Virus record (IMG/VR): IMGVR_UViG_3300043436_003945
Coordinates: 1-53,810 of that record
DNA length: 53,810 nt
Origin: a virus
Taxonomy: Duplodnaviria; Caudoviricetes
Reading direction: 5' to 3' (one strand)
The notes below the pieces were generated by a model. That model had not been told where the DNA came from and searched no databases. It saw only the letters and a program-made list of their open reading frames with translations. Both the position numbers and the translations under genes were made by a program. Shown here piece by piece: positions 1 through 37,776 of this stretch; the first letter of the stretch is position 1; each line of letters starts with the position of its first letter.

Positions 1-347
1 ACGTTAGTACAGGAAGATAACACTCCAGTTATCGGTACGTTTGGGAGTGGCGCTCCCCCGACCCGAGCCCGCCAGCAGTTTGCCCTACACTGCATCGCCC
101 GTAAACGGGAACCTATTTAGATTGGGCGTTTGGACGATGGCGGTTTACGGCGAGCCGCTACACAGAGCGACAAATGGCACGCCGGAAAATGATTGCAGCG
201 ACCGAGGGCGTTCATTGTCTCACCTAACTTTTAGTTTGGATATAACTTCAGCGTCAAAGGGATGACGCGCTTGGGTAGTATGGTAAACGCGCTCGGTATG
301 CCGAGGTGACGGTGCTGCAAAATTGGTGTTGGAAAGAACGAAAAGGA

Positions 348-463
348 TGCCCCCTAGAGGAATCGAACCTCTGCCCCCAGCGTCTTTATCGAATCGGCTG
401 CTCAGGCCTACTCTATCCGTGAGCGGTGGAAAGACCGGGAATCTGCCACTGAATTAAGGCGGC
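348..463 (-). tRNA. tRNA-like gene with a 45-nt insertion in the anticodon arm (Glu-UUC or Gln-UUG if spliced); no encoded CCA
   Basis: Reverse strand folds as acceptor GCCGCCT/AGGGGGC+A, D arm ATTC-AGTGGCA-GATT, anticodon stem CCGGT/GCTGG, 4-nt variable loop and T arm AGAGG-TTCGATT-CCTCT; 116 nt = 71-nt tRNA body + 45 nt. Confidence 0.75.
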
Positions 464-579
464 GTGTACTTAAAGAACGTGTCGCTGTCGACGTGGGAGA
501 ATCTGTATAAAAACTTTTATGTTAGCGAGTAAAACCTTTTGAGTGCTGGTGTCGGTTGTTGGGTGCCAACGGGTTATCG

Positions 580-2472
580 TCAAAGAGAATCCATCGTGTC
601 CGTGCTGCCGATACGCTGAACGTAGTCGTCGTTTGATTCGCGGACGCCCGCAGCACCGGTTGCGCTGGGACTGCCGTCCATCGACAGGCGGCAGACGTGT
701 ACGAGAATCGAGAGTGCGTCCGCTCGGTCTGGAGACTTGTTGCCTCTGGATTTGTACTCCTTCTTGGATTCGACCTTGATCTTTTTTCCGGAGAGCAGGA
801 ACCGCCGTCCTGTAAGTTCTGCCACGAGAGGATCGAGCGGGATGCTCGGCGAAATCTTGACGAGGCCGAACTCGATGAACTTGCGCATCGCGAACCAAAG
901 TTCGGAGACGAGGTAGGAGTATTCGTCGCACGGGAGCTGCGTGTCCTCGTCGAGAATCTTCCGTTCCGTAGGGGCGTGCGAGCCGTTGATTCCCTTGGTG
1001 CCGGAGTTGAACGTGGAGACCAACAAGTCGTGGACGCCTGCACCGTTGCCCGTCCGGTCGACGCCGAGGTAGTTGCCCTTCAGATACGCGCCGTTGCAGA
1101 TGCGGACAATCTCGTCGACGAGTTTGAGCGTGTCGCCCTTGGGGAGCGGGAACATCTGCTCGACCTGAAGGACTTCTCGACGGATCGTTTCGCCTCGGGC
1201 GTCTTTGAACGGAACGAAGACGCCGTTCTTTTTCCAGCCGGTCGCGAGTCCGAACTTGCCGAGGACGAAGATCGCGTTGTCGCCGCCCTCGAGCGCGACG
1301 TCGACCGCGCCCACCGTCGTCGGGGGCTCGGAAAATTCGTACGTGCCGTAGAGATCGTGGGTGAGGTGCTGCGGAATGATTGCGAGGTCGATACCCGTCG
1401 GAGGGTACCACCCGCGCGCCATCGTGTAGTAGCCTGCTGTGCCGACGCCGCCCGCGTTTCGGATAAGGGCGTCGAGGCCTTCGCGGGTCTGCATGCCGAA
1501 GAAGATTTCTTTTCCGGTCTGCACGTTCTCGGACTTGTACGCGTCAAGACGAATGACCTTCCAGCCGCGCTTTGATTCCCATTCGTGCGAGTTCTCAATG
1601 TCGATTGACGCCCACCCGTCCACGGGTTCAGTCCTGATTGCGCAGGGGCCGTTCGGGTCCTTCGGATTGAAAGGTGCGACAACCTTGAGCTGTCCGCCGG
1701 CACGAGCGTTCGAAACCAAGTTCGTCAAGTCCTCGAAGAGACCGATGGGGATGTTCTCCGCTTCCTCGAGGATTACCCGAACTCTCGTCCCGGGGCCGAG
1801 CTGGGGGTGGACCTTTGGACGGGCGAGGATCTTGACACCCTGCAAGCGCCCGGCGGCCTTCTTGCCGGTAGGGGCCACGATACCGAAGATGCCGCTGTCC
1901 CGGGCCACCGAGTCGAGCGTGATACCTAGCTGCACCAGTTCGCCGGGCCCGGGGATCGAGGCGTTCTTGTGGAGCTTTGCTAAGTGGGAGAAAAGATTGC
2001 GCTCCAAGTGGCCCTCGCTTGGGCCGGCGATGAGGATGTTGGTGAAGTGCGGATCGCGCCGCCAGTCGAGATAGCACCAGACGCCGACGTTGTACGACTT
2101 GCCCATCGACGCGGCCCCGGGCACCATCACCAGCGTGTTCTCGAAGATGCCCTTCCAGAGCCTCGAGACGTTCTGGGGTTCGCCGGAGAAAAGGTTGGCC
2201 GGCCAGAGTAGCGTCGCGGCGTCAACGTAGCGTTGCGAGTCGAGGAGGAACTGGAGGAACGACTGGAGGATCGCGATGGCGGTTTCCTCCGACATCTTTG
2301 CCGGCCGGGCCTGCTCGAGAAAGTCTAGCGTGAGCAGTGCTGCCGTCTGGCGGTTGCCCGTGTGCAGCGGAAACGACACCTGCTTGACGAAGTCGGCGAT
2401 GGGTCCGCCGGTCACGAGGGTAGTCGGGCTTGGAATCGTTGACGCGATGGGTGTGGCGGCTAAGTTAGACAT
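580..2472 (-). CDS. terL: Terminase large subunit
   Basis: Walker A GAASMGKS, Walker B VILEEAE, RNase H-like nuclease motifs AVDVALEGGD, GVDRTGNG, SPDRADAL. Confidence 0.92.
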   Translation of the reverse strand: MSNLAATPIASTIPSPTTLVTGGPIADFVKQVSFPLHTGNRQTAALLTLDFLEQARPAKMSEETAIAILQSFLQFLLDSQRYVDAATLLWPANLFSGEPQNVSRLWKGIFENTLVMVPGAASMGKSYNVGVWCYLDWRRDPHFTNILIAGPSEGHLERNLFSHLAKLHKNASIPGPGELVQLGITLDSVARDSGIFGIVAPTGKKAAGRLQGVKILARPKVHPQLGPGTRVRVILEEAENIPIGLFEDLTNLVSNARAGGQLKVVAPFNPKDPNGPCAIRTEPVDGWASIDIENSHEWESKRGWKVIRLDAYKSENVQTGKEIFFGMQTREGLDALIRNAGGVGTAGYYTMARGWYPPTGIDLAIIPQHLTHDLYGTYEFSEPPTTVGAVDVALEGGDNAIFVLGKFGLATGWKKNGVFVPFKDARGETIRREVLQVEQMFPLPKGDTLKLVDEIVRICNGAYLKGNYLGVDRTGNGAGVHDLLVSTFNSGTKGINGSHAPTERKILDEDTQLPCDEYSYLVSELWFAMRKFIEFGLVKISPSIPLDPLVAELTGRRFLLSGKKIKVESKKEYKSRGNKSPDRADALSILVHVCRLSMDGSPSATGAAGVRESNDDYVQRIGSTDTMDSL

Positions 2473-2630
2473 GGGCTTTGAGTTTCATGAAAAATTTTAA
2501 AAAATTGCGCGAGTAGCCTAGCCGGACGTTCTCGCCGATTCCCCCCGTCGGGGGTCCCCTTTTTGTCCGGCCGGTTGACCGGCTCAGAGGGGAGACGTCC
2601 GTCCGACTGATCGAGGCATGGACCTATCGA

Positions 2631-2648
2631 CGGCAGGGTAGGGGAGGG
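2631..2648 (+). promoter_or_regulatory. Overlapping KOPS-like octamers (GGGNAGGG) oriented toward the dif-like site
   Basis: CGGCAGGG (1 mismatch, 2631-2638), GGGTAGGG (2636-2643), GGGGAGGG (2641-2648). Confidence 0.55.
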
Positions 2649-2707
2649 GAGCAGGCTGATGGACTTGTGGCCTTTGCGTCGTGCTGGCGTGATGGCGGAA
2701 AGTCCAC

Positions 2708-2735
2708 ATTAAACATAATAAACATTGTAGGCACT
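2708..2735 (-). other. dif: dif-like XerC/XerD recombination site
   Basis: AGTGCCTACAA-TGTTTA-TTATGTTTAAT vs E. coli dif GGTGCGCATAA-TGTATA-TTATGTTAAAT: 22/28 identical, XerD arm 10/11. Confidence 0.75.
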
Positions 2736-3427
2736 TATGTTTGGGCGTTGGAATTGAACCACGATTGAGAGAGGTCCATGTCTGCGGGGTCGGGCTGGAC
2801 GTCGGCTAAGGCTGGCGGGGGGCTAGGAGGCCTCGCCGTTCTGATTCTAAGGCAATTGGTACAGACCACGTCGCACTTGGCCACCTCAAGCTCCAGCTTC
2901 GGTAATTGCAGCCAGCGGTAGGCAGAATGGATGAGGTGTTTTCTCTCGCCCCGAACATGGTGGAAGTTCATGCAGACCGAATCGAATGTACCTCCGCAAT
3001 CAACACACGGTCGTGCTTTCTTGGCGGCCAGCCACGCAACGCGCTCAGAAATGATTGACGAGGTTTTGGTTTTAAAGGCTCGGCACTGGTTGCACTGCCG
3101 GGATCGGTAAGTTTTACCATGTACGCGAGTCAACACGAACCGCCCGACAGGTTGGGACCTATGGCAGCGGCTGCACTTCTGGCTGTCTGTTGTCAGGAGC
3201 TGTTCGATGTGCTCGCCTGACACAGGCTGCAAACGGCTGGGAATACGCGTGGAGTTCGGAGTATGCGTGCCTGAGTCGATTGAGATGTCGTTCAGCGATG
3301 CAGGGGGACACGTTGGAACGTGAGTTGATGATTGCGTGTCGAGGGATGCGGGCGAATCGGCAGGTTCGTGACAACCACTCGTCTCCATACCAGCACTCAA
3401 AGAATTTGCGGAGCTGTTCGAGTTCAT
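2735..3427 (-). CDS. HNH endonuclease-like protein with Zn-binding CxxC pairs (true start may be internal)
   Basis: CSRC, CNQC, CVDC...MNFHHV...KCDVVCTNC; located between terS and terL. Confidence 0.7.
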   Translation of the reverse strand: MNSNSSANSLSAGMETSGCHEPADSPASLDTQSSTHVPTCPPASLNDISIDSGTHTPNSTRIPSRLQPVSGEHIEQLLTTDSQKCSRCHRSQPVGRFVLTRVHGKTYRSRQCNQCRAFKTKTSSIISERVAWLAAKKARPCVDCGGTFDSVCMNFHHVRGERKHLIHSAYRWLQLPKLELEVAKCDVVCTNCLRIRTARPPSPPPALADVQPDPADMDLSQSWFNSNAQT

Positions 3428-3432
3428 CGAAT

Positions 3433-4023
3433 TTACTCTGTTGCGAGCGTCTCATCTTTCACGGCCTTGAGAATTTGTTTGGTGGCATCGACCGCGTCGA
3501 CGTTAAATCGGTTGCCTAGTGCTTTGTATACGGCCAACGAAACCGCAGCAACTCCAGCCTCTGCGGTCGAGGTGTCGGCGTCCTGCGCCAGCTTATCACC
3601 CAGCGCACGGTACTTGATGTCGCCGAGGATCTGGGTGCCTTTAGCCAGATCGACGATATTCTTGACGCTGAACGAGGTCTCGCCCTGACCGTCCACCACA
3701 GTGCAGAATGCGCGCGCAAACTTCTCGTCGCTGTCGAGATCCTTGATGAGGTTGTTGAACACACGCTCGAGCCGCATCGCATTCGCGTACGTGGACACGC
3801 GGTTCATCACTCTCTCCGTCTCGATACCTTCGTCGGTATCCAACCGGCCACGACCGCCGGCCTTCGCCTTCCAATTGTAATCGTGCGCCAACTCCTCGAT
3901 CTGCTTGACGGGCGTACGAGTCACGACAGCGACGCGCTCGACGTTGCCACCGAACATCGTGTAAAGAGTAAACAGTTGGACTTGGTCTGGGTCGCGGACC
4001 CAGTCATCTTTCGTTACGGTCAT
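3433..4023 (-). CDS. Probable terminase small subunit
   Basis: N-terminal HTH-like segment (GGNVERVAVVTRTPVKQIEELAHDYNW), helical protein upstream of terL, preceded by the GATACT motif. Confidence 0.5.
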   Translation of the reverse strand: MTVTKDDWVRDPDQVQLFTLYTMFGGNVERVAVVTRTPVKQIEELAHDYNWKAKAGGRGRLDTDEGIETERVMNRVSTYANAMRLERVFNNLIKDLDSDEKFARAFCTVVDGQGETSFSVKNIVDLAKGTQILGDIKYRALGDKLAQDADTSTAEAGVAAVSLAVYKALGNRFNVDAVDATKQILKAVKDETLATE

Positions 4024-4029
4024 CTAATG

Positions 4030-4035
4030 AGTATC
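4030..4035 (-). promoter_or_regulatory. Late-gene GATACT motif
   Basis: GATACT-6 nt-ATG(4023); recurs before four other minus-strand genes. Confidence 0.6.
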
Positions 4036-4129
4036 GGTTAAACATTGAGCACGGAAGGGTCTAAACGAACAGACGGCACGACGGCCCACCGTTAAGGAAA
4101 AGGGCCTTGGCCGACCCTCTACCTCTCCG

Positions 4130-4314
4130 ACTCTACAAAGACCCTTTCTCACCGGACGAAAAAAACGGTCAGTTGAACCGGCGAGCTAAAACCAATTTCA
4201 AACTCTACAAACACCCTATCTCAAATAATATCTTTGTAGAGTTCTAACCATAGTTTGGCCAAGGTACCCCCGGACCCTGTTTTTTTGCCGGGACAGATTG
4301 TGTCTTTGTAGAGT
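4130..4314. repeat. Dyad-symmetric array of four 12-bp ACTCTACAAA(G/C)A boxes (candidate origin or regulatory centre)
   Basis: Direct copies at 4130 and 4202, inverted copies at 4231 and 4303; 72-bp spacing in each pair; common axis at 4222. Confidence 0.85.
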
Positions 4315-4376
4315 AAATCGTCGAAATCCGCTTAAAAACCCTCGCATAGGCGTACAAACACCACTATCCAGATACT

Positions 4377-5162
4377 ATGTCTCAGATACAAACACCCGGA
4401 TACAGATTCATCGCACTCAACGTCGGTAAGGGGGCCCGGGGCCGAGGTGGCTCGAAGGTCAGCCCTCATCGTCTATTCGTCGTCGATTCCGACGCTCAGC
4501 TTCCTAATCGGGTCTGGCTCGCGATGGCCCGGCACAGTCAGGTGTTCGTTCCGGAGGCCGACGGCAGTGTCGTTTACGCGCACGAGCTGGTGCTCGGCCG
4601 CAAGCCGACCGACCGCGAGCGCATCCTGTACAACAACACGGACCCACTCGACCTTCGAAAAGCGAACCTTTCGTACGTCAACAAGTACGACCCAACGATC
4701 CCGCAGGCCGTCTTCAATCCCTGCCCCGGCTTTGTAACGAGCCGGCTCGCTGGCTACGAAGAGGCCCTCAGCGAAGCCTACCAGAACTACGAGGCTCTGA
4801 GAAAAGTTCAACGGCAGGAGCACGGTTGGGCCATCGGCAAGAGCATGGGGTCGATGAGCAAGCACGAGGTGCTCTCGCTGCTGAAGTTCTATTCGCAGAA
4901 CTGGACCGACGAGGAGATTGAGTACCACACCGACAAGCGCCTCGGCACAAGCATGGACGACTGCGCGTGCTTTATCCGCGAGGACCTGCAGCACCCGAAG
5001 GTCCCGACCGAAGCGCATATTCGCAACATCCTCAAGGGCAAGTCTCTTCGACTGCAGGGTCAGGACGCCCTGTACGCAAAGATCGCGAAGCTGCTGCCCA
5101 CATACAAGAGCCTGCTCGTTCCGCTTCCGAAGACCCCGATGTTTCAGTCGATTAAACCTTAA
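4377..5162 (+). CDS. Protein with a degenerate HNH-like N-terminal domain; putative DNA-binding protein
   Basis: YAHELVLG...RILYNNTDPLDLRKANL resembles HRLIMG...VDHINGDxLDNRKxNL but lacks the catalytic His/Asn. Confidence 0.55.
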   Translation: MSQIQTPGYRFIALNVGKGARGRGGSKVSPHRLFVVDSDAQLPNRVWLAMARHSQVFVPEADGSVVYAHELVLGRKPTDRERILYNNTDPLDLRKANLSYVNKYDPTIPQAVFNPCPGFVTSRLAGYEEALSEAYQNYEALRKVQRQEHGWAIGKSMGSMSKHEVLSLLKFYSQNWTDEEIEYHTDKRLGTSMDDCACFIREDLQHPKVPTEAHIRNILKGKSLRLQGQDALYAKIAKLLPTYKSLLVPLPKTPMFQSIKP

Positions 5163-5167
5163 CAAAT

Positions 5168-5527
5168 ATGAACAAAGAACGACAAAGAATAGCCATCGCG
5201 GAAGCGTGCGGATGGAAGAACGCTGACCATCCCGACGCAATGAAGCTCAAGCAGGGTTGGACCATGCCAGAAAAGTGGTGCATGGACCCAAAGGGCGTTT
5301 TGCGCTTTAACCATCACAGGCCCGACTACTTAAACGACTTGAACGCCATGGCCGAGGCGGAGAAGGTGTTGCGGGACGACAGAGAAGCTGCCTTTCGTGG
5401 ATGGTTATGGCTTGCGCACGGACAACCGGAATTGCGGTGCGCTATCGTCCACGCCACCGCCGCCCAACGTGCCGAGGCTTTTCTTCGCACGATTGGCAAA
5501 TGGGAGGACGAAAAACAAAGCCGATGA
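5168..5527 (+). CDS. Conserved phage protein (phage ABA-sandwich-like)
   Basis: RIAIAEACGW...PDYLNDLNAMAEAE...ATAAQRAEAFL pattern. Confidence 0.6.
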   Translation: MNKERQRIAIAEACGWKNADHPDAMKLKQGWTMPEKWCMDPKGVLRFNHHRPDYLNDLNAMAEAEKVLRDDREAAFRGWLWLAHGQPELRCAIVHATAAQRAEAFLRTIGKWEDEKQSR

Positions 5528-5814
5528 AACCAACCTACGACAAACAGTACTTCATCGACAAGTTCGCCGCGATCCCCGAGGACCGCTGGATCACCTCATT
5601 CTATGCCGACCCCGACGACGACAGCCGCTGCTGCGCCTTCGGGCACTGCGGCGTGCGATTCCTGATGTCGGGGCCCAACGACGGCGAAGAAGCCGCCGCC
5701 CTCGCCAGTCTGCTTCAGCACCGCACCGCAAGCATCAACGACGGCCAGCACGAAAGCTACCAACAGCCGACCCCGAAGCAGCGCATTCTCGCAGCACTCA
5801 ACGACCTCCCGTAA
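5524..5814 (+). CDS. Hypothetical early protein (96 aa)
   Basis: ATGA overlap with upstream gene; YFIDKFAAIPEDRW, CAFGHCG. Confidence 0.7.
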   Translation: MKPTYDKQYFIDKFAAIPEDRWITSFYADPDDDSRCCAFGHCGVRFLMSGPNDGEEAAALASLLQHRTASINDGQHESYQQPTPKQRILAALNDLP

Positions 5815-5829
5815 AACCACGAAGCGCCA

Positions 5830-6027
5830 ATGAGCCAACTCAACTACACGTTCAAACACGGCGTGGCGAACGACAGGATTCTCATCGAGCTGCACTCGAA
5901 GTTTGGTGAATATGAAACTATCCTCAGCCGCACCGTCATCGACACGCAGGACAAAATCATTCGCAAGGGCTTGGTGAAGCTCGGCTGGACGCCGCCCTCA
6001 ACGACCTCCCGTAGGCACGGAAAATAG
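5830..6027 (+). CDS. Hypothetical protein
   Basis: ORF in the densely packed + strand cluster. Confidence 0.6.
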   Translation: MSQLNYTFKHGVANDRILIELHSKFGEYETILSRTVIDTQDKIIRKGLVKLGWTPPSTTSRRHGK

Positions 6028-6664: not shown

Positions 6665-6966
6665 ACGCAGAACTCCAACCGCACCGCGTCGTGAGCAAAA
6701 CGCAAAACCTCATCTCGGCCATCCTTCCCGATGCGCTCAAGAAGGGTTGCACCTACGTCCCGAGCTACAACAGCGACGGATCGTTTCAAGCGGCGGTTCT
6801 GGCTCGCTTTTCAAAAGGCAAGCGGCCCCGCCTGCTCGCCGGGGTGAGAATTGAACCAACCGGCTGGGCGACGGATTTGACCGTCGATCTTTCGGTATCT
6901 CGCTCCTTCCGCGCCGACGAACGGACGGTTCGAGGGCTCTTGGGAATAACGCAATCTATCGCATGA
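6661..6966 (+). CDS. Hypothetical protein
   Basis: ATGA overlaps on both sides. Confidence 0.65.
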   Translation: MNAELQPHRVVSKTQNLISAILPDALKKGCTYVPSYNSDGSFQAAVLARFSKGKRPRLLAGVRIEPTGWATDLTVDLSVSRSFRADERTVRGLLGITQSIA

Positions 6967-7163
6967 CCGCCTCCGACCTCGAATCCAACATGAACAACCG
7001 CACAAAACAAATCCTCAAAACCGCTGCCTCGGTGGTCGTATCGACCGCATTCCTCGTCTACTCGTTCTCGGGCCTGCCGGGCTTTGAAATTGCGTTCTTC
7101 GCATTTATGGGCTTCTTCGCCACCCACACGTTCGGGTCGGTGTGCGGTCTGTTCGACCTCTAA
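6963..7163 (+). CDS. Small membrane protein
   Basis: Two hydrophobic segments (AASVVVSTAFLVYSF; IAFFAFMGFFAT). Confidence 0.6.
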   Translation: MTASDLESNMNNRTKQILKTAASVVVSTAFLVYSFSGLPGFEIAFFAFMGFFATHTFGSVCGLFDL

Positions 7164-7179
7164 TTTCAAAACTAATCCT

Positions 7180-7344
7180 ATGCTTGCCCTACTAAAACGT
7201 CTGCTCAAAACCACGGCGAAGCCGGCCGTCAAACCGGCGCACAGTCTCGCGCACGCCGAGTATCTCCGGCTCTACAACCTCGCATACTCTGAACCCTCAA
7301 GATTCCCTCGCTCCGCGCTGCTGGTCCGCTATTCTATACGATAA
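7180..7344 (+). CDS. Small basic hypothetical protein
   Basis: MLALLKRLLK...; TAATG coupling with next ORF. Confidence 0.55.
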   Translation: MLALLKRLLKTTAKPAVKPAHSLAHAEYLRLYNLAYSEPSRFPRSALLVRYSIR

Positions 7345-7508
7345 TGCACATCGACGACTTTACTTCTTCCCGCGCCCGCACCCCGACAGAGGTGCAGGCC
7401 GGTATGATTGCAGACCTCGAAGCGCGGCTCGCGCTTGCCGACGAAAGGCACTTCTTTTTGATGGCCGAGAACGCACGGTTACGAGCTGAATTGGAGGTCC
7501 ACAAATGA
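7344..7508 (+). CDS. Small coiled-coil protein (54 aa, not in ORF track)
   Basis: MHIDDFTSSRARTPTEVQAGMIADLEARLALAD...; coupled to both neighbours by TAATG and ATGA. Confidence 0.6.
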   Translation: MHIDDFTSSRARTPTEVQAGMIADLEARLALADERHFFLMAENARLRAELEVHK

Positions 7509-8877: not shown

Positions 8878-9471
8878 ATGAAACCAACGATACCTTTTAT
8901 CGGCTTTCCAAAGCTCGCACGGTTCTCCCGCGAGATTGTAATCACTGAAAAGATCGACGGCACCAACGCCCAAATTTACATCGAGGGCGACAACGTCTAC
9001 GCCGGTTCGCGGACTCGATGGATCGAGCCCGGCGACGACAATTTCGGCTTTGCGGCTTGGGTTGAGCAGAACAAGACCGAACTCCTGCAGCTCGGACCCG
9101 GATCGCACTTTGGGGAATGGTGGGGTGCCGGTATTCAGCGCAAATACGGCCAGACCGAGAAACGGTTCTCGTTGTTCAACACGACGCGCTGGTGCCGACA
9201 CGACGCCGTTCCTTCGGTCTTCCCGACCAACGACCCCAGAGTCGGCAAAACGCAAGAGTTCGCGCCCAAGTGCTGCGACGTTGTCCCTGAGTTGTATCGC
9301 GGGCCGTTTCTACCGCACATAATCGAGCCCGCAGTCCAAGCCCTCGTAGTTAGCGGAAGCGTCGCCGCCCCCGGTTTTATGGACCCTGAAGGCATTGTCA
9401 TCTACCACACCGCCGCCGGCACGCTCTTCAAAAAAACCTGCGTCGACGACCACAAACCAAAGTCGCTTTAA
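8878..9471 (+). CDS. ATP-dependent RNA ligase (Rnl2-like adenylyltransferase domain)
   Basis: Motif I EKIDGTN, SRTR, GEWWG, EGIVI, FKK. Confidence 0.85.
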   Translation: MKPTIPFIGFPKLARFSREIVITEKIDGTNAQIYIEGDNVYAGSRTRWIEPGDDNFGFAAWVEQNKTELLQLGPGSHFGEWWGAGIQRKYGQTEKRFSLFNTTRWCRHDAVPSVFPTNDPRVGKTQEFAPKCCDVVPELYRGPFLPHIIEPAVQALVVSGSVAAPGFMDPEGIVIYHTAAGTLFKKTCVDDHKPKSL

Positions 9472-30480: not shown

Positions 30481-33400
30481 CTAGAAGGGGTTTTCGTCGT
30501 CGGTCGGCTCAACCCGATTCCGGGTCGCCGTTTCCTCCGCGAGTGACTGGTCTTTAATCTTTTGCGCGCGTGCTACAACCCTTTCAAGAACTCGACGAGA
30601 ATCTTGGCCTCTTTCGAGCGTGATTCCGGCGAGGGGGAGGGTTGGGTCGGCTCCTGCTTTTGCAGGATTCTCGTTATCGAGGATTGCAGCCGTGTCAATT
30701 CCGAGTCTTTCGAGGACGGCTGCGACTTTTGGATTTTTGAGGAGTTCTTCATAGAATTCGGGCGTGTTAAGTATATCGCCTTGCGTTAGCGAAGCGAGGG
30801 TTTCCGCCGAAGAACGGCCCTCGACAGTGCCCTCAACGAGGGTCTTAAAAAACGACCAAATTGTCTCCTGTACTTCGGCGGGTTTGATGTCGAGCGTGTC
30901 GGCGACGCGGCGCACTTTGGCGTTGAAGGCCGCATATCCGGCCTTTGTGCCGAACAGAGTCTGCGAAATACCGGCGAACTGCGCCATCCACGAATCGTTT
31001 GTCGAGGCTTGAAGGTCGCCGAGGAGGTTGCGACGAAAACTTTCGACCTTAAAACCGGACATTTTGGTGTCTTCGTCAAATTTCTTCGACGACGCAATCG
31101 GGTTGTCTTCGAGGTCTTTTCCGAGCAGTGCGCGGATGGTGTTGTTTTCGCGGGCCGAAAGACCCACCAATGGTTTTACCAACTCTTTGATCGTCGCAGC
31201 CTCTTCCGGTCGTCCGGCTTCGAGATACTTTTCCCAAATATCGAACGCCATCTCCATGTTTAATTGCACGGACTGCCGGGGCGAAGTTGCGGCCAACACA
31301 CCGACAAAATTTTCGGTGTCGTTGCCGAAGATCGTGCGCAGCGAACGTCCGGCGCGTTCGTACCAGCCCTTTTTCAGCATGCCCATCTTGACGGCAGCCT
31401 CAAATTCCACGTCCGGCGGCAGCTCTTTAAAGATTTCGAGCATGTCGGCCGCAGTGTTTTTGCGGATTTTAGAGCGCTCTTCGGGAGTCAGGTATTTTGC
31501 GATTTCTTTGTAGGGGCGGGTCAGCCGGACGTCGTCGGCTTCCGGCATAAAGCGCCGGTTTATCTCAAACCCGTCGGCCTCCAGTGCTCGTCCTTCCGGA
31601 AGATTCCAGATCGACTTGCGAATGCCTTCTGCGGAGAGCTGCCCGGACGCCTCGGCAAGCTTTGCGGCCTCGACGCGAGTCATAAATTTACCTTTGTTGT
31701 CTACAAACCCGAAGGCCGAAGAAGGCACGTCGTCAGTCGTCGCACCTTCGTCTACAAAACCCTGCTCCTGCATCCGCTCAAAGGCGTCGTAGTGCTTTGC
31801 TCCCGTAAAGACTTCGCCGTCGAACCGGATCGCGGCTTTGTCGACGCGCCGCTTTCCTTCGGGCATAAAGCGAACATTTCCGGTCTTTTCGTATTCTTGC
31901 AGACGGTCAAAGTACGCGCCCGTGCTTCCGTACTTTTTGCGCAACTGAGCGGCGACCTCGCGGCCCTCCGGGGTCTCGAGTCGGCTGCGCGGCGTGCGGA
32001 CGTCGGTCTCCGATACCGGGGTGCCATCAACCGACACCTTCTCAAATATCTCGACCTGCTTAAAGAGATCTTTGCCCTCGCCGCGAGTGCGGATCAGCCC
32101 CACGTACCCGGCATCTTTCAGCATTATGTCCGCGCGCTGGCGGTTGGCGTCCTGCGTCCAGTCTAGCGCGTCAGTATCGCCGTCGTATATCCGTTTTCCG
32201 GAAACTGGAATTTCGTATTTGTTGCCCCGAAGCTGCGAGGGGTCGCCCTTGTTCTCAAAGCCCTTAACGTAGAAAAATACGCGCGGCTCGCCGGAGAGTT
32301 CGGACCGGGGCGTGATGCGGCTAGAGCCAAACTTTGCGGGGTCGAGTTCGCTTAGACCGGCCGCACCACGGTGGACGAGCGTGAGCGTCTTGTTTCGGAT
32401 TGCGTCCGGGAGTTTCTTCGGGGCGTCAAACTGCACTTCGGGCAGGAAGCGAATGTCGGGGTTCGTCGGGTCGAACGCACCGGAGTTGCCGGTCGCGGAT
32501 TTGACTTGGGTCGGTTCGAAGACGGCATAAGTATTTCCGACTTCAACGCCCGGACGAATCGGGTCTTCCTCAAAAATAACTCCGTCGTACCCGGCCTTTT
32601 TTAACCCTTCGGCAAACATTTTGCCGTCCTCGCCGTCGAGCAGCTCCCACCACGTGCGACGGTTCTGCAGCCAGTTGTAGTTCACGCCAGTCTCTTCGGC
32701 CAGAACATCGAGGTTGGTGTTTCGGTCGAGATACAGCGGGGACTTCATGTCCAAGTACGCGGGGATTGTGCGAGCGCCCGTATCGGCTCGACCTTTAGAA
32801 TCCGTGACGTAAGAGGCGGCTTGTTCCGGCACGTCTGAGAAAAAGATTGCGTGCCGATTGGTCTCCACGTTCCCAAAAAAACCCATGTCGTCAAAGGTCT
32901 TGCGGCCAGACTCAAACGCCGTAAAATCTTTGGTGGTGGCGTGGTAGACTCGCTTCGGTTGACCTTTTGAGTCTACCACCACCGACACCGGCCCCTTGCG
33001 GCGACTTGTAAAAGCCTTCGGGTCCTGCCAGTCGCCAAACCATTTCTTGAATGCGGGCGTATCCGGAGCCTCCGGCATAAACGTAGCGCCCGGACCGTAG
33101 TATTTCGTCAGGTCGTCGGCATACACGCTCGACTCCATGCCGTCCTCAAAACGAACGTACGCCATCTGCGCGCCGTCGCGTGCGCCGCCCTTTTTTGGCA
33201 GCAAATCGGACACGAACTCCACGACCTTTCCGGACGGGAGTTCAAACTTGTCGCCCTCCTCGTAGCCGGTCGGCTCGACCTTTGCTATCTTGGCGCGCAT
33301 CTTCTCGCGCATCGACTCACCGAAGCCCTCTAGCTGACTGTCTTCGGGCATGAACGCGGCCTGCGGGTCTGCAGCCTGCAGCAGCTCCGGCGGCACCACG

Positions 33401-36400
33401 GTATTTTTCTGGTCGGCAAACCGGCGTTTTGCAATCGGGACAAAATCGGCGTCCCCGGCTTTCGGCAGCGAGCCGTCTGCCCGACGCAACTGCGGACCAA
33501 AGTTCACCCAAGCATTCTGCGCCAACGTCTCGGCGGCGAGTGCGGGCTTTGCTTCGTCGGAGAACATGCGCGAGTGCGCAAGGTAGGCGTTGTACTCGCC
33601 GCGAGGGCCAAACTCAAACCCCTCGGCCGTGTGGCCAAAGTAATCGTGGACCGCCCGGAAGAGGTCGTTGTAAAGGAGGTCGACGCCGTTAATCTTGATG
33701 CCAGACTTTTCAAGCAACACGTTGTTGCCTGCGTCTGCGCCTTCACCAAAGGCGTTCTTTGTCAGGAAAAAATAGAGGTGTTTGTTGTCGCGAACGTCCG
33801 CGAGCATCGCCGCAGAGTTGGCGTATGGCTCGCCCTTGCCCTCGTAGGGCTCAATCTCGATGCCGTTGGCGAGCATCTCGTCGTACTGAGCGCGAGTCTC
33901 TTCGGAAAGCGCCCGATACGCCTTCTGAACCTCGGGGTTCTCGGGCTCGTTTTTTGCGTTCTCGTAAAAATCGGCGATGCGCCTAAGCGTCGTCTCGTTG
34001 ACGGGTGCGTAGGTGTCGTGCGGAGCGGCTTGGATTCCAGCCTTTTGAGTGTATCGGGCTGCGACACTGCGCGTTTCGTCGTTGCCTTGCGGGCGACGGG
34101 GAGATCCGGTCTCGGGCATAAAGCCCGCCTGAGTAATCGCGACATCCGCCGCAGGCATTGCGACATCGGGACGCACTTTGATCGCCGAGGTGAAATTCTC
34201 GGTCGGGAGATTCTCGACTGCGGAATTGAGGATGCGGGGGTCGAAGCCTTTCTGAAGCAGCGCAGCCCGGAGCGCGTTGTTGTCGGTGAGCGGGCGACCC
34301 TTATCGTCGAAACCGACCGTAAGGGGGTCAATGCCGTTCTGCTTTGCGAACCTCGCCGAGAACTCCATGCCCGGCGTGCGCGTCGCCTGCTGCTCGAGGT
34401 TCAGGAGCAGATTAAAGAGTTGGCGTTTGTTGGTCGGAAGAGCGACCGGGACGAAATTCGGGTCCTGCGCGGTAATGGTCCCGGGCCGGGTATCTGCGGG
34501 CAACGATAGCTTCTTCCCGTCGCCGCCGTAGCCGTGCGCTTGGTTGTCGAGGTAGGTCCTGAAATCCGAGACGAGAGCATCAGAGGCGAGATACTCTTGA
34601 GACACGCCAAAATTGGACAGAGTCTCCGCAATTGCCGGAGTCTCTTTTGCGAGCCCGCGCAACAGGTCAAGATTCTGACCAACCTTGTCGACCGACATGC
34701 CGTAAATGCCGCCCGGCTGACGTGGCGCACCCTCGCCGTAGAGGCGGGCGTTTGTGGCGGCGTCGAGCTTGTACGAAGACCAGCGATACGGGACAAAGAG
34801 CTTCTGAAACGTCGCGCGGAACGGGTTCGGTTCGCCGGATTTCTCGAGCGCGTCTGCGGCTTTTCGCTGGGCGGCTCGGACGATTGCGTCAGGAGACTGA
34901 ACCGGGGAGGCGGCCGCGTAGTAGTCGGTCTCGACGGCCGGGATCTCGGCGCGCGGGGCGGACATAAGGCCTTCGAGGACCTCGCGGTTTGCGGTGTGGA
35001 GCGCATCGGGGGCCTTGGCGGCGAACTTGGACGCGGCACCGGGGCGCAAGTTTGGCGTTGCGACCGAGCCCTGCGGACGAGCGACATTCTCGACCTGCTT
35101 TGGTGCAACGGTGGTGGCGGCGGTCGCAGGCGTAGGTGCAACGGCAGCACCGAACGGCGTCTGCGGCGTCACAGGCGAAGCCGGGAACACCGTCTTGTTC
35201 GGATCGACTTTGCCCGGAGAGATCGGGGAAACAAGAGAGGCCTCGTCGGTCGTAGCGATCAACCGTTTGCCGGTGTCGGGGTCGATGAACTCAATTTCGT
35301 AGGTGCCATCCTCGTTTTTCCGCAGAACCTTCGCGTCCTCGGCAACCAGCATTCCGTTCTTGTCGCGAATCTCGCCAATTGGGTCACCTTTCTTGAACCC
35401 GGGAACGACCGGCTTTGCTTCGACCTCGCGGATGTTGCCCAAAGGAGATGTTGGCGCATTTGCGGGAACCGGCGCGATTGGCGCATTTGTGGCGCGATCT
35501 GCAGGGCCTTCTACTGGCGGTAAGGTAACGTCAATTGGAGCGGTTTCACCGTTGATCGTTGCGACGGTCGTGTTGTCGAGCTGCCGGGCCTCGATGAAAT
35601 TTTGGTAGAGTTCCGCGAGCGCGGCCGACGGTTTGTAGCCGAGTTCGGTGCGGACTGCCGCACTGTTGTCGGTCGTCAGTCGGCGCGCGCCACCCTTTTC
35701 GAGAACCGCTCCAATAGAGACGCGAATGCGGTCGGCAAGACCGCGAGGCGTACCGAACTTTTCGATTGGGACGCCGTTTAGGTAGGCCGAAAAGTTCTCC
35801 GCAATGTACTCTTGGGCTGCGTAATCGTCAGAAATTTTGACCCGCTCGGCCTCCGGGACCGGAGTATAAGAACCGTCTTCGTTGCGTTTTTGGTTGAACA
35901 GATCCTCGTAGCGGGTTTTGAGCTGCGCAAAGTCGTCGGGCCGAATGGTTTTTGAGACCGTATCGAGCAGGGCCTTTTTCTGGGCGTACGGGAGGCTTGC
36001 ATAAAATGCGTGGCCGACTTCGTGCCCGAGCGAAATCCCGCCGTTGCTGTCGGCGTTGATGACAACAAGGCGGCGCTTCTGACCGGGAATCTCGACCGAG
36101 AACCCGGCCCGGCCCTGCTCCGACCCGGCGTATTGTTTTGCCAGAGCGTCTGCAGTGGCGCGGTCTGCCAGATAGATTTCGGTTTTGATCCCGTTGGCGT
36201 CCGGCTTGACAAAGAGCTTCTTCAAGGCCTCTACGGTCTGCGCGCCCTTGTTTGAGAGCGTGTCAAATACCTGCTTCGATTTGGCCTCGACGACGTTGCC
36301 TTGATCTTGAGAATAATAGGAAAACTCCGGACGCTCGTATGCGGAGTCCGGGGCCTTTGCGGTAGCATCCCGAAAAGCCGAGTCAATCGAGAAATATCGG

Positions 36401-37776
36401 TTGCCAGCACCTACGACTTGGCCGACCAGATGGCCGCCTACGCCAAAGGCCGCGCTAGAGCCCAACACATCCGCGACGTCCTGCTCGTCCCGGGCCGACA
36501 ACGCAAAAGGAAGCCCCAAGGCAAGACCGGTTTGACCGCCCTCAACAATAGAGGGCTTGACAAAATTGACCGCGCTCTCGGCAAATCGACCCATCGGTCC
36601 GAGTGAGGCCTTTCCGGCGATCTGGTCGCCAACTCGTACTAACGTACGCCCGCTTGATTTAAGGACATCCGCGACCGGTCCGGCACCCCTAACGGTTCCG
36701 GCCCCGATAAGGGTTGCGAGCATCGCGGTAATGGGCTCCGCGCCTCCGGCGAGCGCCGTTGCGCCCGCAACTGTTCCAACAACGGCCGGGCTGTCGGACG
36801 CACGGACGACTCTTTGGCCGGCCCCAGAAACCGTCGCACCAACGCCACGACGGAGCACACCGACCGTCTCTGCGGCGTTTTCAACGTCCGAAATCTTTTG
36901 TAATCCTTTCGCAACAACCTCTACACCGCCTGCCGTGCGAACTCCAAGCCCAAGAGCGTTGCCAACCTTGCCGACGACAAACCCGGCACCAAACGGAATC
37001 CAATTTAGCGGGTCGTAAGCAACCTGCAGGTTTTCCGAGACCTCGGGACGGATCGGTGAACCGAGTGCGGCGGCCTTCTCGCGAATACCTCCGGGCAAAA
37101 ACTTGCCTTCTGCGGCCGCTTTGAGAGTCTGCACACCGCTAATGTCTGCGTCAGCTCGACGTTCGTATTCTTCGTCGGATTGAAGGGTTACTTTTGCGGG
37201 TTGCGCAACGAGCAGCGGGTTGCGCAGAACGTCGAGACCGCGAGAGAGGCTCGGTTTGGAAAAAGTCACGGAGTCCGAAACATTCTCTACAGCCTTGCGA
37301 GCAAGTTCGTACGTTGATACAACTGCGCCAGAAATAGCGGAACCGGCCTCTCCGACGGCCTGTAATTGTTCGGCGGGATTACCCGCGAACAGGGATTTGA
37401 CGTTGTTTGCGACTGCCGGGATTGACTCGGTTACGACTGAATACAGGGTTCTACCGGCGACCCCCGGCAGAGCCAGCGCAATCTTTGCGACGTCGTTAAG
37501 GGAGTCCTCGGCAGACTTTGACGCCTGCTTTTTTTGACGGTCCGCGAGGGCCTTTACAAACAGGGGGCGGAGCGTCGGGTTGTCGCCGTATTCGGACGCC
37601 GTTTGGACGGCCGCGCTGTAACCATCTATCCCGGCCAGAGCCTCCGTAACAGTCTGCTCCGGGGTGTAGGTTGCAGGGATGAAATCTTCATCCTCCTGTG
37701 CTACAGGTGCGGGGATGAAGTCTTCGTCGGTCGCTATCGGAGCTGGAAAAAAATCGTCGGTAGGTGAGTCGGCCAT
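30481..37776 (-). CDS. Large polyvalent (probably injected) protein: zincin-like metallopeptidase, ADP-ribosyltransferase-like and other domains
   Basis: HEVGH...EYIAE; RAVHDYFGH; FKKWFG...VYHAT...IFFS...GYDGVI...FEPTQVKS (ART of polyvalent proteins); C-terminal WY..A/ATSP/ND.WM domain. Confidence 0.85.
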   Translation of the reverse strand: MADSPTDDFFPAPIATDEDFIPAPVAQEDEDFIPATYTPEQTVTEALAGIDGYSAAVQTASEYGDNPTLRPLFVKALADRQKKQASKSAEDSLNDVAKIALALPGVAGRTLYSVVTESIPAVANNVKSLFAGNPAEQLQAVGEAGSAISGAVVSTYELARKAVENVSDSVTFSKPSLSRGLDVLRNPLLVAQPAKVTLQSDEEYERRADADISGVQTLKAAAEGKFLPGGIREKAAALGSPIRPEVSENLQVAYDPLNWIPFGAGFVVGKVGNALGLGVRTAGGVEVVAKGLQKISDVENAAETVGVLRRGVGATVSGAGQRVVRASDSPAVVGTVAGATALAGGAEPITAMLATLIGAGTVRGAGPVADVLKSSGRTLVRVGDQIAGKASLGPMGRFAESAVNFVKPSIVEGGQTGLALGLPFALSARDEQDVADVLGSSAAFGVGGHLVGQVVGAGNRYFSIDSAFRDATAKAPDSAYERPEFSYYSQDQGNVVEAKSKQVFDTLSNKGAQTVEALKKLFVKPDANGIKTEIYLADRATADALAKQYAGSEQGRAGFSVEIPGQKRRLVVINADSNGGISLGHEVGHAFYASLPYAQKKALLDTVSKTIRPDDFAQLKTRYEDLFNQKRNEDGSYTPVPEAERVKISDDYAAQEYIAENFSAYLNGVPIEKFGTPRGLADRIRVSIGAVLEKGGARRLTTDNSAAVRTELGYKPSAALAELYQNFIEARQLDNTTVATINGETAPIDVTLPPVEGPADRATNAPIAPVPANAPTSPLGNIREVEAKPVVPGFKKGDPIGEIRDKNGMLVAEDAKVLRKNEDGTYEIEFIDPDTGKRLIATTDEASLVSPISPGKVDPNKTVFPASPVTPQTPFGAAVAPTPATAATTVAPKQVENVARPQGSVATPNLRPGAASKFAAKAPDALHTANREVLEGLMSAPRAEIPAVETDYYAAASPVQSPDAIVRAAQRKAADALEKSGEPNPFRATFQKLFVPYRWSSYKLDAATNARLYGEGAPRQPGGIYGMSVDKVGQNLDLLRGLAKETPAIAETLSNFGVSQEYLASDALVSDFRTYLDNQAHGYGGDGKKLSLPADTRPGTITAQDPNFVPVALPTNKRQLFNLLLNLEQQATRTPGMEFSARFAKQNGIDPLTVGFDDKGRPLTDNNALRAALLQKGFDPRILNSAVENLPTENFTSAIKVRPDVAMPAADVAITQAGFMPETGSPRRPQGNDETRSVAARYTQKAGIQAAPHDTYAPVNETTLRRIADFYENAKNEPENPEVQKAYRALSEETRAQYDEMLANGIEIEPYEGKGEPYANSAAMLADVRDNKHLYFFLTKNAFGEGADAGNNVLLEKSGIKINGVDLLYNDLFRAVHDYFGHTAEGFEFGPRGEYNAYLAHSRMFSDEAKPALAAETLAQNAWVNFGPQLRRADGSLPKAGDADFVPIAKRRFADQKNTVVPPELLQAADPQAAFMPEDSQLEGFGESMREKMRAKIAKVEPTGYEEGDKFELPSGKVVEFVSDLLPKKGGARDGAQMAYVRFEDGMESSVYADDLTKYYGPGATFMPEAPDTPAFKKWFGDWQDPKAFTSRRKGPVSVVVDSKGQPKRVYHATTKDFTAFESGRKTFDDMGFFGNVETNRHAIFFSDVPEQAASYVTDSKGRADTGARTIPAYLDMKSPLYLDRNTNLDVLAEETGVNYNWLQNRRTWWELLDGEDGKMFAEGLKKAGYDGVIFEEDPIRPGVEVGNTYAVFEPTQVKSATGNSGAFDPTNPDIRFLPEVQFDAPKKLPDAIRNKTLTLVHRGAAGLSELDPAKFGSSRITPRSELSGEPRVFFYVKGFENKGDPSQLRGNKYEIPVSGKRIYDGDTDALDWTQDANRQRADIMLKDAGYVGLIRTRGEGKDLFKQVEIFEKVSVDGTPVSETDVRTPRSRLETPEGREVAAQLRKKYGSTGAYFDRLQEYEKTGNVRFMPEGKRRVDKAAIRFDGEVFTGAKHYDAFERMQEQGFVDEGATTDDVPSSAFGFVDNKGKFMTRVEAAKLAEASGQLSAEGIRKSIWNLPEGRALEADGFEINRRFMPEADDVRLTRPYKEIAKYLTPEERSKIRKNTAADMLEIFKELPPDVEFEAAVKMGMLKKGWYERAGRSLRTIFGNDTENFVGVLAATSPRQSVQLNMEMAFDIWEKYLEAGRPEEAATIKELVKPLVGLSARENNTIRALLGKDLEDNPIASSKKFDEDTKMSGFKVESFRRNLLGDLQASTNDSWMAQFAGISQTLFGTKAGYAAFNAKVRRVADTLDIKPAEVQETIWSFFKTLVEGTVEGRSSAETLASLTQGDILNTPEFYEELLKNPKVAAVLERLGIDTAAILDNENPAKAGADPTLPLAGITLERGQDSRRVLERVVARAQKIKDQSLAEETATRNRVEPTDDENPF

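Follow-up and report, generated by a model that had tools for sequence, protein, structure and literature searches.

A tRNA-derived gene whose anticodon loop spans 52 nt, located downstream of a terminase-like ORF in a lake phage

The IMG/VR virus record IMGVR_UViG_3300043436_003945 comprises 53,810 bases, with a GC content of 58% and an estimated completeness of 76%; it was analysed over its full length, which we refer to as the window. The phage is present in public lake-water DNA runs; no RNA run was listed as carrying positions 1-6000 of the window. A Pfam scan identified a phage ORF with sigma-70 region 2 (Sigma70_r2). Because of this sigma-70-type ORF, and because related phages carry tmRNA genes and CCA-encoding tRNAs, we judge from gene content that the host is bacterial; the idea of an archaeal virus was dropped in view of the sigma-70-type ORF and the relatives' tmRNA genes. 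A 630-aa ORF of the window has no sequence match in Pfam, PHROG or PDB, and its designation as terminase-like rests on Atlas look-alikes named terminase and on motifs that we take to be those of a terminase. The gene described here starts 116 nt past the stop codon of this ORF, and the contig ends 347 nt beyond the gene; within those remaining 347 nt, no nuclease gene, repeat or replacement tRNA adjoins it. In another part of the window, a 2431-aa ORF (30481-37776, minus strand) carries an ART-PolyVal ADP-ribosyltransferase domain and DUF7178, and looks like a polyvalent virion protein.

Through alignment of the 630-aa terminase-like protein, 53 related viral loci (484,634 nt) were fetched, and in 16 of these ARAGORN identified ordinary tRNAs, 22 in total. 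Downstream of the terminase-like gene lie a tRNA-Met and a tmRNA in closer relatives, and a tRNA-Gln(UUG), about 90 nt after the gene, in six more distant ones. Full-length tmRNA genes (Rfam RF00023) sit at the end of the small-RNA array in L002 (5156-5514, 89 bits), L008 (8266-8615, 88.3 bits) and L007 (7471-7779, 67.7 bits). Since tRNAs and tmRNA follow the terminase-like gene in these relatives, the gene in the window is, by its position, evidently one unit at the start of such a small-RNA array. The same tmRNA start and end were seen by eye in L059, and the window's contig stops before the spot where a tmRNA would be expected.

ARAGORN in its default mode predicts no gene in the window, and Rfam with gathering filters returns no match and misses the locus. 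When introns were allowed, as the sequence-only reading had proposed, ARAGORN called a tRNA-Glu(ttc) of 71 nt with a 45-nt intron at c[348,463]. In permissive mode the tRNA model RF00005 scores 33.6 bits against a cut-off of 29, with an E-value of 3.6e-5 (6.6e-7 per genome in the genome-wide search); all 71 of its 71 positions are aligned, and 48 nt replace three positions of the loop. This is the sole tRNA-like match in the record in the genome-wide Rfam search. Models of the tmRNA and Y-RNA-like families match merely fragments of 8-11 bits on the T arm. Together, the intron-mode call and the RF00005 score demonstrate that the gene is tRNA-derived, well beyond chance. The tRNA-like gene first noticed by eye at this place is therefore real, and we add that it lies on the minus strand, with the 5′ end of the RNA at 463 and the 3′ end at 348 (Table 1).

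The 5′ part of the RNA consists, in order, of the acceptor strand GCCGCCU, U8 and A9, the D arm, C26, the stem strand CCGGU and the start of the loop, CUUUC; the 3′ part consists of AC, the stem strand GCUGG, a variable loop GGGC, the T arm, the acceptor strand AGGGGGC and the discriminator A. The T arm (AGAGG-UUCGAUU-CCUCU) is perfect, and the nucleotides of the tertiary contacts are all kept (U8, A14, G18 G19, A21, G15/C48, G53 U54 U55 C56 A58 C61 and U33). Both stem mismatches that had been pointed out from the letters are present: G4.G69 in the acceptor stem GCCGCCU/AGGGGGC, and a D-stem mismatch that we identify as U11.U24 in the D arm AUUC-AGUGGCA-GAUU. CCA is not encoded; UCC UUUU comes after the discriminator A. 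The anticodon stem CCGGU/GCUGG forms three Watson-Crick and two G.U pairs and encloses, as had been seen, 52 nt rather than 7, so that the primary transcript lacks the 7-nt anticodon loop on a 5-bp stem expected of a tRNA. It is also correct that removal of 45 nt leaves CUUUCAC or CUUUGAC, depending on the choice of cut. The identity set of the gene presumably fits neither Glu nor Gln, and the codon usage of the phage (per thousand: GAA 21.0, GAG 28.2, CAA 13.0 and CAG 21.6) gives no indication either way as to whether a Glu or Gln tRNA is needed. Judging by this anatomy, the RNA as encoded most likely cannot decode.

Table 1. Coordinates of the tRNA-derived gene and of associated features in the window
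Feature	Position	Strand	Basis or remark
Whole tRNA-derived gene, 116 nt, cloverleaf frame	348..463	minus	ARAGORN -i; RF00005 33.6 bits
5′ part, RNA 1-35	429..463	minus	ARAGORN -i and stem/loop reading
45-nt insert at ARAGORN's cut	384..428	minus	cut can slide, giving other loops
3′ part, RNA 81-116	348..383	minus	ARAGORN -i and stem/loop reading
CGTTCTTT motif, part of the GTCGACAGCGACAC-GTTCTTT block common to L002 and L059	472..479	minus	ends 8 nt before the RNA 5′ end
Second CGTTCTTT motif	333..340	minus	7 nt after the gene
Terminase-like 630-aa ORF	2472..580	minus	Atlas look-alikes named terminase
Minimal Rnl2-like RNA ligase domain, 197 aa, KIDGTN motif	8878-9471	plus	Pfam, PHROG and T4 Rnl2 matches

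The insertion had been described as structured, and this description is not borne out, as the RNA folds no better than shuffled sequences. The whole 116-nt RNA has a minimum free energy of -35.7 kcal/mol, compared with -37.65 ± 3.71 for shuffles (z = +0.53), with 137 of 200 shuffles as stable or more so; the fold of lowest energy is not the cloverleaf. The 62-nt anticodon domain behaves likewise (-13.7 versus -16.0 ± 2.9 when shuffled, z = +0.79), with 163 of 200 shuffles equal or better. When the acceptor, D and T arms were held fixed, many alternative folds of the centre lay within 1 kcal/mol of each other, and the pairing probability of the 5′ anticodon-stem strand was split over three partners. 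The pairings UCUUU/AAAGA and GCUCA/UGAGC reported earlier are indeed complementary, although they compete with others. Inverting the segment between the UCUUU/AAAGA repeats, as judged by eye, restores no tRNA. The window holds no second copy of the insert (the best match, apart from itself, is 10 nt), and the 53 related loci contain no match to it above 12 nt; as a repeated mobile hairpin element of the MITE or REP type the insert therefore fails, for lack of further copies.

Searches of IMG/VR, JGI metagenome contigs and GTDB genomes yielded no orthologue of the gene or of the insert, and no intron-less allele. Contigs from two other lake runs, X3 (193-546) and X4 (387-654), are identical across the gene; because these strains are near-identical throughout, the identity tells nothing. 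In strain X5, represented by a 20-kb contig from a third lake run with both flanks aligned, 161 other letters replace positions 356-471 of the window.

The insert fits no known class of removable intron. Group I introns of bacterial tRNAs likewise lie in the anticodon loop, but those known measure about 200 nt or more. The sequence-only reading had held the present insert to be too short for this class; with 45 nt and no group I match it is, and no Rfam family, group I included, matches the insert or the locus at gathering thresholds or at E-values up to 10. In phages, the group I introns observed to date all lie within protein-coding genes, according to a review (PMC3984707).

Splicing of archaeal and eukaryal tRNAs depends on a bulge-helix-bulge (BHB), in which a 4-bp helix has a 3-nt bulge on either side (Yoshihisa 2014, PMC4090602). 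The insert is like these introns in its position in the anticodon loop; its 45 nt fall inside the archaeal range of 11-129 nt given in the same paper, and the central helix described there for archaeal pre-tRNAs has a 4-bp counterpart in the window gene, where loop nucleotides 32-35 (CUUU) form a perfect duplex with the AAAG that closes the insert on its 3′ side. However, the 3′ bulge adjacent to this helix is 2 nt, the paired 3-nt bulges and the inner helix are lacking, and the host is judged to be bacterial. None of the eight cuts that restore a 7-nt loop yields BHB geometry; at most three of the four helix pairs form, and the canonical 37/38 cut gives a pyrimidine, C37, at position 37. Among 55 candidate ORFs compared with Pfam and PHROGs, many of them matchless and drawn from a record that is 76% complete, no splicing endonuclease or healing enzyme was recognised.

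The phage does encode a predicted RNA ligase, which matches PF09414 (1.5e-14), phrog_548 (3.4e-32) and T4 Rnl2 (1.7e-4) and would keep a cut-and-rejoin route open. Ligases of this kind occur in the records of two of five relatives, G003 (51% identity) and G002 (a weak match), both of which have ordinary tRNAs only; they are absent from the other three of the five, some of these records being incomplete. G003 also has a weak tRNA-Gly(UCC)-like gene far from the array (G003:C1:11231-11298, L212 132-199; 31.4 bits), without the GG of the D loop and with an odd T loop.

Lak megaphages are reported to carry short 'enigmatic' tRNA introns that are left unexplained (Devoto et al. 2019, PMC6784885). 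The Lak introns too are missed by bacterial-mode tRNA finders and become visible when introns are allowed, and they too are short, of no recognised class and of a splicing route that is not known. Lak inserts are, according to the same source, identical across cohorts, with alleles that have or lack them defining the junctions, whereas the window gene is one sequence with no insert-less allele and two stem mismatches, in a lake phage with 58% GC and a genome of at least about 54 kb. With no BHB, a bacterial host, an insert too short for group I and without a group I match, and neither an intron-less allele nor an orthologue, nothing tested supports splicing, and we think, from these sequence comparisons, that the transcript is probably not spliced.

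The closest relatives of the phage, L002 (from IMG/VR) and L059 (from a metagenome), have 82% identity in the neighbouring protein and share with the window the upstream block GTCGACAGCGACAC-GTTCTTT and a downstream block beginning GCAGCACCGUCACC. The slot between these blocks (L002 3822-3894, L059 2273-2345) is occupied by a 73-nt tRNA-like RNA that is not the window's gene and has no sequence similarity to it. The two cassettes are alike in their slot and flanks, in the motif 8 nt upstream, in a score with RF00005 just above the cut-off (34 bits for the sister cassette) and in the lack of decoding. They differ in that the sister RNA is compact and very stable, and in that its 'anticodon arm', UCGGG-AGUA-CCCGA with a 4-nt loop, is shortened rather than expanded. 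The sister RNA folds on its own into a cloverleaf (z = -3.82, with one of 200 shuffles as good). The L002 and L059 cassettes differ at 13 of 73 positions and keep 21 of 21 cloverleaf pairs, two of them through changes on both sides, a covariation that rests on two sequences. These kept pairs and this fold provide modest but positive evidence that the sister phages maintain a non-decoding tRNA-shaped RNA in this slot. CCA is part of the gene in L002 for each of the three tRNAs, for the tRNA-like RNA and for the tmRNA. After the tRNA-like slot, a conserved stretch of about 130 nt (window 186-318, minus strand; L002 3898-4034; L059 2405-2542) is closed by a long helix (GCAGC...GCUGC; ACCGAG.GCG / CGC.CUCGGU) and terminates in a run of U. 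Rfam gives no match to it, 4 of its 28 predicted pairs are kept through changes on both sides among three sequences, and it is a candidate small RNA in its own right.

The two copies of CGTTCTTT bracket the window's cassette as a direct repeat. The 8-nt spacing between motif and gene is the same in the sister cassettes, and the same spacer motif precedes or follows RNA genes in the arrays of relatives. In the arrays of L002, L006-L009 and L059, (C)GTTCTTT is found upstream of tRNA, tRNA-like and tmRNA genes, 5-11 nt from their 5′ ends, and in L006-L009 GTGTGCTA lies 12-21 nt further upstream of it. Genome-wide, CGTTCTTT is not enriched (6 matches versus 3.8 expected). We infer that CGTTCTTT is a promoter-like or processing signal, and (C)GTTCTTT may be a phage promoter for small RNAs. 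In L006 (~6965-7430), the promoter-like motif and tRNA-Met are separated by about 470 nt that are GC-rich, contain many inverted repeats and have no Rfam match.

An 18-mer from downstream of the gene matched L002's contig and one coding region by chance, and an 18-mer from the sister cassette matched L002's contig and, again by chance, a coding sequence. The pattern of the upstream block was found in IMG/VR on L002's contig alone and elsewhere as a chance coding match in a Xanthobacteraceae MAG, while a 25-mer spanning the 3′ end and the spacer had no match. A scan with the spacer motif gave at least 114 chance matches, one of which had a loose match to a T-loop-like regular expression upstream, in AT-rich sequence that does not look like a tRNA. 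In our reading, units of the array bracketed by the CGTTCTTT motif would be exchanged between strains, in a fast-swapping fashion.

Parts of the gene resemble other tRNAs. The last 25 nt, comprising T arm and acceptor strand, are exactly those of nine bacterial tRNA-Arg genes; in nine of the nine the 5′ strand pairs fully, and thus G4 of the window departs from that type. An 18-mer of the D arm in the 5′ part has 24 exact matches in GTDB genomes, none of them in tRNAs. Within the insert, GCUC-ACGGAUA-GAGU could form a D-arm-like hairpin, and the 8-mer ACGGAUAG equals the D-loop region of four of the nine tRNA-Arg genes. The stem strand CCGGU has a second, proximal partner, ACCG, with which it can form four Watson-Crick pairs around a 6-nt loop, and a tRNA-Arg of Nanopelagicales (L070; one of the nine with the same 25-mer) has the anticodon-stem strands CCGGU ... 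ACCGG. These hints, which are post hoc, suggest that the gene may be a mosaic of two tRNA genes. An inner, 5′-truncated tRNA within the insert was also considered and has no support from covariance models; the insert and 3′ part alone gave no tRNA match above an 11.4-bit tmRNA fragment.

Intron-mode ARAGORN was also applied to the 53 related loci and made six calls, three on ordinary tRNAs, one poor and two on genes that look tRNA-derived; shuffled copies of the same DNA gave one call in six rounds. One of the two, in L008 (8062-8176), is tRNA-like and lies between tRNA-Met and tmRNA; its loop measures 47 nt, and no cut in it regains U33. The 5′ acceptor strand of this gene (GGCCGAUG) recurs within that loop, and of the two copies the inner one pairs better with the 3′ strand. 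The other, in L031 (2787-2926), resembles tRNA-Arg(CCG). Its 7-bp acceptor stem is perfect, CCA is encoded, and loop positions 32 and 33 are separated by a 61-nt insert with an 8-bp hairpin. This gene was detected by intron-mode ARAGORN alone and missed by the Rfam-based genome search, and a search for relatives with a 24-mer from its exon matched its own contig alone. In L059, the RNA array holds an ORF for a 139-aa HNH endonuclease (2572-2991; Pfam HNH at 21.4 bits, exactly the cut-off), whose end overlaps the start of tRNA-Thr (2954-3029); L002 has a small basic ORF in that place. The interrupted genes of L008 and L031 and the HNH ORF of L059 therefore point to the arrays of this phage group as likely sites of insertion and rearrangement.

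Of the readings offered from the letters alone, that of a protein-spliced intron has lost ground, given the lack of a BHB, the bacterial host and the missing intron-less allele, whereas an unspliced mimic and decay have gained from the sister cassette, the mismatches, the missing CCA and the swap in X5, a decoy for anticodon nucleases being a conjectural form of mimic. Our own leaning, which is tentative, is that the gene is a tRNA-derived relic of a rearrangement between tRNA genes of the array, perhaps still transcribed, rather than an RNA shaped by selection. We lean this way because of the two mismatches, the absence of CCA, an insert with no defined shape, the failure to find orthologues and the exchange in X5. 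The turnover of the slot (X5, the unrelated cassette of L002 and L059, and the HNH ORF in the L059 array) counts for the same reading, as do the proximal ACCG, the 8-mer shared with tRNA-Arg D loops and the nested acceptor copy in L008. Against a relic stand the intact tertiary nucleotides and the perfect T arm, which would be unexpected under free decay, the conserved 8-nt spacing of the motif, and the fact that phage genomes carry little junk. The apparently maintained non-decoding RNA of L002 and L059 also speaks against a relic, and favours a selected tRNA-shaped RNA. Such an RNA would remain unspliced and act as a mimic, its acceptor/T/D body offering bait or a substrate to some tRNA-binding factor, such as a tRNA-targeting defence nuclease of the host or a processing enzyme; the anticodon domain would be free to vary, as decoding would not be its job. 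The well-folded sister cassette, with its 34 bits, 21 of 21 kept pairs and lack of decoding, agrees with this, as do the tertiary-contact nucleotides, T arm and motif spacing of the window gene. Yet the two cassettes share no sequence, so a function of one is not transferable to the other; two stems of the window RNA contain a mismatch and its fold is not stable, there are no orthologues to show selection, strain X5 lacks the sequence, and imitation of a tRNA anticodon loop would require a normal loop. We therefore regard a selected mimic as possible but doubtful.

A true intervening sequence, cut at both junctions by an endonuclease and with the halves joined by an RNA ligase into a tRNA with anticodon UUC (or UUG), appears improbable to us. 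It draws on an exon frame in which the cloverleaf is complete, with U33 present and A37 obtained at one of the cuts, on the resemblance of the CUUU/AAAG helix to the central helix of archaeal pre-tRNAs (PMC4090602), on the 197-aa ligase, on the Lak introns (PMC6784885), on the L031 gene with its perfect acceptor, CCA and 61-nt insert, and on the tRNA-Gln(UUG) directly after the terminase-like gene in six more distant relatives. It is opposed by the 2-nt 3′ bulge and missing inner helix, by the failure to recognise a splicing endonuclease among the ORFs scanned, by the occurrence of the ligase in relatives with ordinary tRNAs only and its absence from three of five records (some incomplete), by the stem mismatches and a body like that of tRNA-Arg rather than of Glu or Gln, and by the absence of an intron-less allele. 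More specifically, a phage or host endonuclease that went unrecognised might excise the 45 nt from a non-BHB intron and the phage's Rnl2-like ligase reseal the halves into a tRNA with UUC that host anticodon nucleases could not pre-empt; to this version we give rather little credence. Finally, the hairpin CGGU-CUUUCC-ACCG could be the real anticodon arm and the extra 47 nt a giant variable region, giving a class-II-like or 'allo' tRNA shape. The four Watson-Crick pairs of this proximal arm, set against three plus two G.U pairs distally, and the same arm strands in the Nanopelagicales tRNA-Arg are in its favour, but a 6-nt loop would not decode either, the distal pairing is the one chosen by both ARAGORN and Infernal, and the pairing probabilities are split among several partners, and we consider this arrangement very improbable.

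On the preferred reading, that of a relic, the gene would combine a T arm and acceptor like those of an arginine tRNA with a loose 62-nt domain in place of the anticodon arm. It would be transcribed from the motif 8 nt upstream, would adopt a tRNA-like shape by means of its acceptor, D and T arms, which are intact, and might be trimmed like a tRNA, and the locus itself would be a by-product of rearrangement between the tRNA genes of the array. Should this be so, tRNA finders in intron mode would give the name 'tRNA-Glu with intron' to such debris, which calls for caution; the value of the finding would be modest, in that it documents rapid exchange of cassettes in a phage small-RNA array that also carries tmRNA. 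If the insert were instead spliced out, it would represent enzyme-dependent tRNA splicing in the bacterial world, so far not shown, with the phage ligase as a candidate. If the RNA were a selected mimic, the slot and its sister cassette would define a set of non-decoding, tRNA-shaped phage RNAs, which would bear on phage answers to tRNA-cleaving defences, a matter of current interest.
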